A DNA stretch of 63,022 bases, the filler included, from Stramenopiles sp. TOSAG23-6 (lineage: Eukaryota), in assembly GCA_900128565.1 (NCBI GenBank). It is 6 parts of 6 records of this genome, joined end to end, with 100 filler letters (N's around TTAATTAATTAA, not from the genome) between each part and the next. Parts side by side here need not be neighbours in the genome. Positions count along the whole stretch, not along the records: positions 31,606 to 42,027 come from LT636314.1; 5 more parts are not named here. One strand, 5' to 3'. The stretch's first letter is position 1. Every line of letters begins with the position of its first letter. This document shows positions 37,235 through 39,019 of this stretch, piece by piece. A program made the position numbers and the translations under genes. A model generated the notes under the pieces. The model worked only from the letters and a program-made list of their open reading frames with translations. It made no database searches and had not been told where the DNA came from.

Positions 37235-39019
37235 ATGTCGGACAAAGCTGGACACTCTCGCATGGTTGGTAACCCTTTGCAAATGGCAGCACGTCTGAAT
37301 AAAGAAATTGTTGCACTGGGTATCGAAGGCAGTGCGAATAAACTCGGGGTGGGTGTTATACGATATAATACTGATGGAAGCACTGAAATTCTTTCAAACC
37401 CTCGGAAAACATACATAACACCAGCTGGAACGGGTTTCCTTCCAAAAGAAACAGCTTGGCATCATCAGAAACACGTTGTAGCCTTGACACGTTTAGCGAT
37501 TAAAATGTCTGGTCTGGATCAGTCTGCAATAGATATCATATGTTATACCAAAGGCCCTGGAATGGGGAACCCATTGCGTTCATGTGCAATGTGTGCGCGT
37601 ACGCTATCTCAATTATTGGATGTGCCACTGGTTGGTGTGAACCATGTACGGTTTACCTCATTCATTTCAATTTAACTTTTTTTTGGTAGAAAATTTTATA
37701 CTAACAAATATCAAAATGTATACATATTTTTTCACAATAAATTGTGTTGGGCATATTGAAATGGGTCGTGTCGCAACAAACGTTGATGACCCTGTAGTCC
37801 TATACGTTAGTGGAGGAAATACTCAGGTTATATGTTATTCGATGCAACGCTACCGAATGTACGTTTTTATCATCAATTTCAAATTATTTTTTCGTACGAA
37901 ATTTCGTACCTAAGATTTTTTTTCTAGAAATATTTTTCACAGAACATTTTTGGCGAGACAATTGACATCGCAGTAGGAAATATGCTCGATAGATTTGCGC
38001 GTATATTAGGTCTCTCAAATGACCCAAGTCCAGGATATAATGTAGAACAACTAGCAAAAAAAGGTACAAAATTTATACCATTGCCATATGTAGTGAAGGG
38101 AATGGACGTACATTTTCATCATGAATTTTAAATTTATTTTTTTCATAGGAAATTTTGTACCTAATATTTTTTTTTCAATTTCGAATTTATTTTTTCACAA
38201 AACATGTTTCATTCTCTGGTATTTTAACATTTATTGGTCAAGAAGCACGGACTAAGTTGAAAAATGGACAGTGTGCGTTCAATTTAAAATATTGTTCATT
38301 TTTTTAAAATTTAAATTTCAGTTTTTTTTTCATAGAAAATTTTGTACCTAACGATTTTTTAAAACCAAAAAAAAATATTTTTCACAATATGTGCACTCGG
38401 GAAGATTTGTGTTACTCATTACAAGAGACAGTTTTTGCTATGCTTGTAGAAGTCACAGAAAGGGCGATGGCTCATTCCGGTCGAAAAGATGTCCTTATTG
38501 TTGGTGGTGTTGGCTGTAATAAAAGACTACAAGAAATGATGTACATTTTCATCATGAATTTATTAATTTATTATGTTTTTGGTACGAAATTTTGTACCTA
38601 ACAAAATCATGAATTTCAAATTTTTTTTTTTTGGAATTTTTTTTTTGTACCTAACAGTTTTTTTTTTTGGAAAATTTTTACACTTCATGCAAATTATGTG
38701 TAATGAGCGTGGAGGTAAACTCTGTGCTATGGATCATCGATATTGTATAGATAATGGTGCTATGATTGCACAAGCAGGTTTGTGTCAATATAGATGTGGT
38801 GGACCGCAAGCGTTCACTTCTATGGATGATGCGACTTGTACACAACGATTTAGAACAGATGTACGTTTTCATCATGAATTTTAAATATATTTTTTTTGGT
38901 ACGAAAGTTTGTACCTAATGATATTTTTTCGTAAAAAAATATTGTACCTAACGATTTTTTTTTTACGTATTTTCATAGTACATGAAGTTTTGATCCGATG
39001 GCGTAAAAATGTCCCGTAA
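37235..39019 (+). CDS. OSGEP: tRNA N6-threonylcarbamoyltransferase Kae1/OSGEP; 7 exons: 37235-37645, 37743-37858, 37948-38107, 38206-38272, 38393-38540, 38689-38860, 38984-39019
   Basis: [85 protein letters not shown]. Confidence 0.96.
37646..37742 (+). other. Kae1 intron 1, GT-AT
   Basis: CAT|GTACGG..ATACTAAC..CACAATAAAT|TGT; restores NH/CVGH. Confidence 0.92.
37859..37947 (+). other. Kae1 intron 2, GT-AT
   Basis: AT|GTACGT..GTACGAAATTTCGTACCTAAG..CACAGAACAT|T; restores RYRIFGET. Confidence 0.92.
38108..38205 (+). other. Kae1 intron 3, GT-AT
   Basis: GAC|GTACAT..GTACCTAAT..CACAAAACAT|GTT; restores KGMD/VSFSG. Confidence 0.92.
38273..38392 (+). other. Kae1 intron 4, GT-GT (or GT-AT if placed at 38271-38390)
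   Basis: CAGT|GTGCGT..GTACCTAAC..CACAATATGT|GC; restores NGQCTREDLC. Confidence 0.85.
38541..38688 (+). other. Kae1 intron 5, GT-AT, two branch motifs
   Basis: AT|GTACAT..CACTTCAT|G; restores LQEMMQIMC. Confidence 0.9.
38861..38983 (+). other. Kae1 intron 6, GT-AT, two branch motifs
   Basis: GAT|GTACGT..CATAGTACAT|GAA; restores FRTD/EV. Confidence 0.92.

Follow-up and report, generated by a model that had tools for sequence, protein, structure and literature searches.

The Kae1/OSGEP gene in a genome assembly of Stramenopiles sp. TOSAG23-6 (GCA_900128565.1) is split by six AT-rich inserts of 89-148 nt (37235-39019, plus strand) that end in AT rather than AG, one of them being readable as AT or GT, and belong to a repeated family carrying U2-type donor and branch motifs. 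These inserts are likely to be real introns that form one lineage-specific, introner-like family of spliceosomal introns with an AU 3' splice site. Unique complete copies were fixed at 22 places in the window (the whole stretch of DNA analyzed, 63,022 nt, consisting of six contigs of ~10.4 kb each joined by N/TTAATTAATTAA spacers); all of them leave reading frames intact, and four consecutive copies in the gene neighboring Kae1 are skipped in RNA contigs. The host was treated as a heterotrophic marine stramenopile of the marine stramenopile group 3 (MAST-3) type.

AT-ending inserts in the Kae1 gene

The gene, its exons, and its six inserts are listed below, with the family copies in this gene designated K1 to K6 and the two dots standing for the sequence between the terminal dinucleotides.

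37235-39019, plus strand: Kae1/OSGEP gene, 7 exons
37235-37645, 37743-37858, 37948-38107, 38206-38272, 38393-38540, 38689-38860, and 38984-39019, plus strand: Kae1 exons
37646-37742, plus strand: intron K1, 97 nt, GT..AT, end AAAT, branch motif ACTAAC
37859-37947, plus strand: intron K2, 89 nt, GT..AT, with AGs 20 and 5 nt before the end, both out of frame
38108-38205, plus strand: intron K3, 98 nt, GT..AT, with RNA contig X4 record 20 at the exon 3 edges
38273-38392, plus strand: intron K4, 120 nt, GT..GT by family alignment; the alternative 38271-38390 is GT..AT with the same mRNA
38541-38688, plus strand: intron K5, 148 nt, GT..AT, two GTACCTAAC copies
38861-38983, plus strand: intron K6, 123 nt, GT..AT; use of a TAG located 5 nt before the end would truncate the protein

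The first exon matched solved Kae1/OSGEP chains in structures (E 1.8e-34), and the best database relatives of the gene were stramenopile Kae1 sequences from oomycetes, Blastocystis, and ochrophytes, together with many unnamed marine sequences. Removal of the six inserts as GT..AT gave a coding sequence of 1110 nt encoding 369 amino acids, and the joined protein aligned with the homologues P0001, P0002, P0003, P0007, and P0102 with zero gaps at all six junctions; P0001 and P0002, the closest of these, share 83-85% identity with it. With the cut marked by a caret, the inserts split the Kae1 motifs NH^CVGH, YRI^FGET, GMD^VSFSG, GQC^TRED, EMM^QIMC, and RTD^EV, and the terminal trinucleotides of K1-K6 are AAT, CAT, CAT, TGT (or TAT), CAT, and CAT, such that the coordinates and the homologue alignment bore out the original prediction in the number, lengths, split motifs, and ends of these inserts. 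For K4, TGT becomes TAT if both cuts shift by 2 nt, which leaves the mRNA unchanged. The other five inserts could be read only as GT..AT, or as equivalent shifts giving the same mRNA, and use of the AGs close to the ends of K2 (CAG at -5) or K6 (TAG at -5) would break the frame or truncate the protein.

A public gene model of the same Kae1 (P0010) has exons identical to the window, but intron sequence is translated in it at five of the six sites, 21 residues of exon 1 are missing, and the model stops prematurely within K6; this garbling is what forced canonical splice sites would be expected to give. In the two closest homologues Kae1 is encoded uninterrupted, the contigs being 3769 nt long for P0001 and 1333 nt for P0002.

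RNA contigs across family introns

Five seawater metatranscriptome runs from two studies contained 10-18% of the sampled words of contig 4, and contigs from four of these runs were aligned to that contig (31606-42027). Runs X1, X4, and X5 are three samples of one study with polyA libraries, while X2 comes from the second study. In a minus-strand SAP-domain gene at 39286-42026, the neighbor of Kae1, RNA contigs skip four consecutive family introns:

41718-41846, minus strand: intron RA, 129 nt, GT..AT; joint 41716/41846 in X1 and X4, cut movable by 1 nt
41470-41622, minus strand: intron RB, 153 nt, AT..AT; joint 41469/41623 in X1, X4, and X5
41298-41385, minus strand: intron RC, 88 nt, GT..AT; joint 41296/41385 in X1, X4, and X5, cut movable by 3 nt
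41083-41200, minus strand: intron RD, 118 nt, GT..AT, branch motif TCTAAC; joint 41082/41201 in X1 and X5

The cut can be moved by 1-4 nt at the four joints, and the sole reading that fits all four is [G/A]T..AT; for instance, the plus-strand ends AT..AC at the RD joint are GT..AT on the minus strand. The RA joint leaves TA..TG as its only alternative, and a CAG 5 nt upstream of this joint was passed over in the RNA. Record 29 of X5 (431 nt) spans three exons and thus two of the four joints, including RC; its positions run on without a break at both (123/124 and 219/220), with no inserted letters. The exon lengths keep one reading frame across all four, and the RNA contigs differ from the exons by 0-3 letters per listed piece (0-1 in the joint-crossing records). 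At the level of contigs, the metatranscriptome check proposed with the original prediction came out in its favor, as these cross four neighboring introns exactly at [G/A]T..AT.

For Kae1 itself, record 20 of X4 (238 nt) matched exon 3 only (37946-38107) and left 74 and 2 letters unplaced beyond the exon edges, a stop at both edges that is consistent with splicing and not proof of it. RNA depth over Kae1 was at most 1.6 in the bins covering 37174-37869.

Summed RNA depth for the family sequence reached thousands compared with about 1-10 for exons in the same runs. At 33694-34041 and 34390-35085, family depth was ~2,000-7,900 in polyA contigs and ~0-8 in the adjacent exons. Such depth is as expected for unspliced or excised intron RNA from many loci, with DNA carry-over as the alternative.

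Size, spread, and termini of the intron family

Family copies were fixed from their coordinates, and a hidden Markov model (HMM) built from 10 of them found members on all six contigs. In the window, GTACCTAA occurred 33 times versus 1.09 expected, and none of 100 shuffles reached 33, a sharing far beyond chance; the predicted recurrence of one insert design on all six contigs was upheld. The 22 unique complete copies lie in at least 10 genes on five of the six contigs and are accompanied by two mirror duplicates, six partial copies, and about six degenerate or tentative ones, the two mirror copies being set apart because contig 1 is an inverted duplication. The original count of 28 complete copies, a few of them tentative, thus compares with 22 unique complete ones, and two of the copies first counted proved to be the mirror duplicates. 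The class had also been called genome-wide, which is shown for six ~10-kb contigs.

The family layout starts with [G/A]TAYGTTTT at the 5' end, followed by GTACCTAAC, a T-run, and TTTTTCACAATACAT^, and the conserved 3' block of the copies is UUUUUCACAAUACAU^, with the cut directly after the block. Copies are 88-153 nt long with ~20% G+C, and show pairwise identities of up to 88% between unrelated genes (C6 versus C8) compared with a shuffled-control maximum of 65%; the presence of many similar introns at unrelated positions is a feature of introners and of introns derived from miniature inverted-repeat transposable elements (MITEs). The last base is T in all 22 copies and position -2 is A in 21, the remaining copy being K4, which ends in GT or AT. 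GT starts were found in 20 of the 22, as predicted, and the other two (C2 and RB) start with AT, against the prediction. The donor consensus over the 22 copies, AT^GTA[C/T]GTTTT[C/A]AT, is of the U2 type (a donor of the U1/U6 kind), and CTAAC is present in 20 copies (CTAAG and CTAAT in the other two) at 29-49 nt from the 3' end with T-runs between, as in the branch motif (CTRAY or TACTAAC, with a bulged A) and pyrimidine tract of U2-type introns. The 3' consensus is TTTTTC-A-C-A-A-T-A-C-A-T^G and no copy has AG at its 3' end (0/22), where U2-type introns have a terminal YAG. An AG occurs between the branch motif and the 3' end in eight copies, in frame in none of them, and four of the 22 have an in-frame AG within 31 nt downstream of the 3' end. 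Intron phases 0, 1, and 2 are represented by 9, 6, and 7 copies, respectively.

No AG-ending intron could be verified in the window. The single GT-AG intron of the original prediction was not confirmed, since its sole candidate (52930, minus strand) can be read with either an AT or an AG end. This degenerate family copy (52816-52930, minus strand) has the donor GTTCGTTTT at 52930 and no CTAAC, and its possible ends ..CCCAT (52837) and ..TTTAG (52816), read by hand, give the same frame and the same stop near 52762. A further family copy begins at ~52728 and runs off the contig.

A 19-nt core of the family had one match in prokaryote genome contigs and three in JGI metagenome contigs, with no family member among them: inspection of the flanks and nhmmer led to rejection of all four as chance matches.

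Reading frames across the remaining copies

For the 12 copies outside the range of Kae1 homology and RNA support, the check was whether cutting at the family-aligned boundaries brings the longest open frame upstream into phase with the longest one downstream. It did so in all 12, nine of them without any choice of boundary (chance expectation (1/3)^9); C1, C8, and C23 have two GTs 2-4 nt apart, of which only the consensus-matching GT is in frame.

244-331, plus strand: intron C1, 88 nt, GT..AT, in frame; mirror copy at ~10112-10200 (minus)
4794-4892, plus strand: intron C2, 99 nt, AT..AT, in frame, in a TIG-domain gene (Pfam); mirror copy at 5365-5463 (minus)
13331-13424, plus strand: intron C4, 94 nt, GT..AT, in frame, in a gamma-tubulin complex component gene
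21310-21404, plus strand: intron C5, 95 nt, GT..AT, in frame
30507-30608, minus strand: intron C6, 102 nt, GT..AT, sole interruption of a 2029-codon frame
33720-33809, plus strand: intron C7, 90 nt, GT..AT
34667-34767, plus strand: intron C8, 101 nt, GT..AT, 88% identity to C6
43675-43778, plus strand: intron C20, 104 nt, GT..AT, with a CAG 5 nt before the end out of frame
43933-44025, plus strand: intron C21, 93 nt, GT..AT
44184-44307, plus strand: intron C22, 124 nt, GT..AT
48285-48423, plus strand: intron C23, 139 nt, GT..AT; a second GT 2 nt away is out of frame
49224-49369, plus strand: intron C25, 146 nt, GT..AT

C4 has independent homology support: the match to positions 1-86 of the Pfam GCP_N_terminal profile reaches the final residue of the exon before it, and the match to positions 89-296 begins at residue 3 of the exon after it. 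Frames remain intact at all 22 copies, and removal yields uninterrupted frames of 963 to 2029 codons.

The partial copies are located at contig ends or beside a gap:

31606-31655, plus strand: partial copy, 3' part, at contig start
30-110 (plus), 41975-42027 (minus), and 42128-42180 (plus): partial copies at contig ends
52644-52716, minus strand: partial copy, 5' part, at contig end
9639-9714, minus strand: partial copy beside the N gap 9707-9837 of contig 1

Five distinct contig ends and one internal gap (9707-9837) fall inside family copies, the ends listed with copies being 1, 10442, 31606, 42027, 42128, and 52644. Contigs ending inside copies indicate that assembly fails at the repeat, and this implies a high genomic copy number.

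Contig 1 (1-10442) is an inverted duplication of itself with its center near 5128, pairing the frames 1140-4028 (minus) and 6229-9117 (plus) as well as the introns at 290/10153 and 4842/5415. The sequence turns back on itself within a family intron, at a small internal palindrome (5079-5178), and the contig looks like a chimera of whole-genome amplification.

The pattern could in principle arise with no removal at the RNA level, either by DNA excision similar to that of ciliate internal eliminated sequences (IESs) or from insert-free alleles or paralogues with the window copies being pseudogenes or assembly artefacts. The assembly does have artefacts, contig 1 being an apparent amplification chimera, contigs cannot prove their template, and the close relatives P0001 and P0002 encode uninterrupted proteins. 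Against this, four inserts in a row are skipped exactly by RNA contigs nearly identical to the window, these RNA runs are also rich in family sequence (where DNA carry-over is possible), frames are intact at all 22 copies, and the borders are not bounded by TA as those of ciliate IESs are, which makes this explanation very unlikely. Base-calling error was ruled out because 22 independent copies share the same AT end.

Mode of removal

Removal of the family as spliceosomal introns is attributed to the major spliceosome because the best-conserved parts are the U2-type donor, the branch motif, and the U-run, in the order and spacing of ordinary short introns. That a U2-like donor and branch class is cut precisely at AT, as originally predicted, agrees with the gap-free Kae1 junctions, the 12 of 12 joined frames, and the four RNA-skipped copies. 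In the proposed mechanism, the major (U2-type) spliceosome would remove the introns using the element-borne donor [G/A]UAYGUUUU and branching would take place at the element-borne motif (GUAC)CUAAC. The 3' site would be set by the 3' block of the element and its position, at the end of ...CACAATACAT, and not by the first AG after the branch, since nearby YAGs are passed over. If K4 is read as GT..GT, this copy would suggest that position matters more than the dinucleotide itself. In GT-AG and AT-AC introns, first and last bases G-G and A-C go together; by analogy, the last U of this family might pair with the G or A at the first position, G-U and A-U both being possible pairs, which is speculation. 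An altered 3' splice-site recognition system in this organism is a reasonable inference.

The minor (U12-type) spliceosome, in a diverged and expanded form, could be considered as the agent in place of the major one, as it is known to tolerate G or A as the first base and varied 3' dinucleotides. U12-type introns have the donor [A/G]TATCCTT and the branch site TCCTTAAC ~10-26 nt from the 3' end. The family resembles them in its long conserved donor and in combining GT (20) and AT (2) starts with the same 3' end, but its GTAYGTTTT donor lacks the TATCCTT core, TATCC occurs in no copy, and CCTAAC lies 29-49 nt from the 3' end, beyond the U12 range. Among minor introns, GT-AT and AT-AT are documented as rare subtypes, and another stramenopile, Blastocystis, has minor introns in the hundreds, 77% of them AT-AC (10.1101/2022.09.24.509304). 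Both cuts can be placed 2 nt upstream in 14 of the 22 copies, about 10 of which then become AT..AC by hand reading. As a general rule this re-reading was rejected, being impossible for 8 of the 22 copies: the RNA-proven RA, where the cut moves by only 1 nt, and seven others. Removal by the minor spliceosome is accordingly regarded as unlikely.

A non-spliceosomal route, namely structure-guided excision as in the nonconventional introns of euglenids, in which the cuts are drawn together by pairing of the ends, or an endonuclease-ligase pathway, would account for the non-canonical termini, and a transposon-like origin has been proposed for the euglenid class as well (PMC11282704). The ends are weakly complementary, two of eight folded copies showing GUAU paired to AUAC with the final AU unpaired; this end pairing is just 4 bp and is missing in most copies. 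The structure-guided model was dropped because the eight introns fold no better than shuffles (z -2.0 to +0.1), with no stable structure. The best-conserved internal features are moreover the U2-type donor, CUAAC, and the U-run, the last of which is absent from euglenid nonconventional introns (PMC11282704). Taken together, such a route appears very unlikely.

Origin of the family

In addition to what was originally predicted, the copies make up an introner-like repeat family that most likely spread as a small MITE-like transposon, with the AT on the exon side possibly representing a target-site duplication that supplies the 3' AT. The closing AT of the intron would then be the second copy of a 2-bp AT target-site duplication, and probably is. 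The upstream exon ends in AT at 14 of the 22 copies, and its last 2 nt equal the last 2 nt of the intron at 15 (14 AT and 1 GT, the latter being K4 with GT at both exon and intron ends). Overall, the element ends form an imperfect inverted repeat, GTAYGTTTT...AAAATAC: by eye, the youngest subfamily (C5-C8 and C22) has the inverted copies GTAT(G)TTTT ... AAAATAC and K6 and RA have GTAC and GTAC, the repeat being imperfect or absent in other copies.

The cultured MAST-3 Incisomonas reached 93% BUSCO with a standard gene caller (PMC12614181), which suggests an intron class confined to part of MAST-3. Together with the uninterrupted Kae1 of P0001 and P0002, this hints at a family expansion limited to some members of the group.

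Several observations weigh against a family of transposon-derived introns removed by the major spliceosome. Catalysis of the U2 type is argued from motifs and spacing, and no Rfam small nuclear RNA matched within the window, where Rfam matches numbered 0 for all families. No Kae1 joint is among the 15 of 55 RNA joints listed, so the case for Kae1 splicing is made by homology and by one contig ending at the exon 3 edges. The four joints come from one study, with none from X2 of the second study among the joints listed, and 11 of the 15 are long skips, "goes back", or "opposite strands" joins between intron copies; these odd joins are best explained by cross-alignment of the repeat, as repeats confuse mapping. 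Lariats and splicing efficiency are beyond what RNA contigs can reveal. As for a transposon origin, 7 of the 22 copies have no 2-nt repeat between exon and intron, a splice consensus on the exon side would explain this AT repeat equally well, the inverted repeats at the ends are short and imperfect, and neither an empty site nor an autonomous element was seen.

Neighboring genes and other features of the window

Adjacent to Kae1, a frame of 458 codons (35704-37077, minus strand) encodes a PWI domain (E 4.7e-19) and, after it, a weak match to Torus/CCCH, an arrangement resembling RBM26/27. By its domains the product would be a protein of the RNA-processing type; it is noted as a neighbor of Kae1 and not as a factor tied to these introns. 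Fragments with the GTACCTAAC core and no recognizable donor or acceptor were observed at 35515-35617 (minus), 848-928 (minus) with its mirror 9329-9418 (plus), 21913-21988 (minus), 62302-62395 (minus), and 62532-62615 (plus). They appear outside long open frames, e.g., downstream of the 35704-37077 gene, and the fragment at 21913-21988 has the unit TGTACCAAATTT in tandem; these core-only fragments could be decayed copies or introns of untranslated regions.

DUF4116 repeats were found in two genes, strongly at 59238-60551 (plus; E 2.7e-70) and weakly at 1140-4028 (minus). Several of the largest frames had no Pfam match (22369-25194, 25316-30505, 31622-33718, 46589-48283, and 52909-56727), and the nucleoporin gene of the original prediction was not confirmed. 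A tRNA scan of the window found 0 tRNA genes. Isolated single Ns inside contigs (10551, 11186, 11196, 11199, 44500, 60552, and 60559) part some adjacent open frames such as 10553-11185 and 11201-11530, and represent local sequence uncertainty and not introns.

Significance of an AT-ending intron class

Few signals in eukaryotic gene expression are as constant as the 3' AG. Known departures from it in Fritillaria, Amoebophrya, and euglenids are messy, with many terminal pairs and often altered donors, whereas in the present family only the acceptor changes, uniformly to AU, next to a yeast-like donor and branch; this isolates 3'-site recognition and second-step docking, and turns the AT-ending family into a natural test of how the end of an intron is located by the cell. 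With this family, the view that bursts of transposons accompany a relaxation of splice-site rules also gains a stramenopile example.

Gene callers limited to canonical sites garble these genes, as in P0010. Single-cell MAST-3 assemblies have been reported with 37-53% BUSCO, ~2,700-3,300 genes in assemblies of 19-21 Mb, and dynein genes in a state of "advanced pseudogenization" (PMC5778133), figures that deserve re-examination if those assemblies carry this intron class. A broader proposal, advanced tentatively and with less than even confidence, is that another rule has taken the place of AG in this lineage of MAST-3: virtually all of its nuclear introns would be GU-AU, or in a minority AU-AU, and be removed by a major spliceosome with re-tuned second-step and 3'-site recognition, the last U pairing with the G or A at the first position, driven by a recent transposon burst whose 2-bp AT target duplication became the acceptor. 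If this were true, nature would have supplied a nearly binary experiment on the reading of the 3' end by the spliceosome, and the published gene counts and "pseudogenes" of such assemblies would be artefacts of canonical-only callers.

Comparison with known systems

Introns of the Saccharomyces type have a strict GTATGT donor, a TACTAAC branch, and a YAG end. The GTAYGT donor and (A/C)CTAAC branch of the family are nearly the yeast consensus and the genes of both are intron-poor, but the ends are YAT in place of YAG and nearby YAGs are passed over.

U12-type introns share with the family the existence of GT-AT and AT-AT pairs (10.1101/2022.09.24.509304) and a first base of G or A, but such pairs are a tiny minority there, with a TATCCTT donor and a branch near the 3' end, compared with a U2-like and apparently main class here. 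Euglenid nonconventional introns likewise have non-GT-AG borders, border repeats similar to target-site duplications, and a suspected transposon origin; they differ in their stable end pairing and lack of a pyrimidine tract, as the present introns have a U-run, CUAAC, and no stable fold (PMC11282704). The introners of Micromonas and the stramenopile Aureococcus are, as here, short non-autonomous transposon-like elements that produce many similar introns in unrelated genes; they carry one splice site while gaining the other from a target-site duplication, as may apply to this family, but they are canonical GT-AG introns without the AT end (PMC11282704; PMC7789003).

Transposon-derived introns with non-canonical ends that are tolerated by an adapted spliceosome are known from several lineages (PMC11282704; PMC13326754; PMC7789003), with Polarella and the euglenids as further cases (PMC11282704), and the closest precedents are those of Fritillaria and Amoebophrya. 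Fritillaria borealis has AG-AC and AG-AT introns with the 3' end derived from a duplicated exon TAC (Henriet et al., 2019, via PMC11282704), and its divergent U2AF paralogues bind the non-canonical 3' ends (Soo et al., 2026; PMC13326754). Both systems show a lineage-specific mass of transposon-like non-AG introns removed by the organism's own machinery, and duplication of an exon motif at insertion provides the 3' end in Fritillaria (..AC from TAC) and apparently here as well (..AT from AT); the U2AF paralogues may thereby serve as a precedent for the altered recognition proposed. Unlike the present GTAYGT donor, strict CTAAC, and uniform AT in a stramenopile protist, the Fritillaria introns mostly start with AG, have diverse ends, and reside in an animal host. 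In Amoebophrya, more than 60% of introns are non-canonical with no dominant dinucleotide pair (Farhat et al., 2021; PMC7789003), and non-canonical introns appear dominant here too, with canonical-only gene predictors failing in both. Repeated intron families are a further likeness, and the inverted repeats and short direct repeats at the exon/intron borders of Amoebophrya (PMC7789003) may have counterparts in the imperfect end repeats and the 2-nt AT repeat seen here, while its inverted repeats, of 8-20 nt and forming hairpins, contrast with the dominant GT-AT, clear donor and branch consensus, and lack of a significant hairpin in this family.

In line with the original prediction, which knew of no GT-AT-dominated genome, no description of one or of unusual MAST-3 introns was found in the full-text literature, supplements and subscription journals lying outside its coverage, and the main texts of four papers on MAST or ocean eukaryote genomes (PMC5778133, PMC8163842, PMC12614181, and PMC9903769) make no mention of non-canonical introns or splice sites. 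A prior description may exist; what sets this case apart in the comparison made here is that a stramenopile keeps the canonical donor and branch and changes only the acceptor, uniformly to AT.

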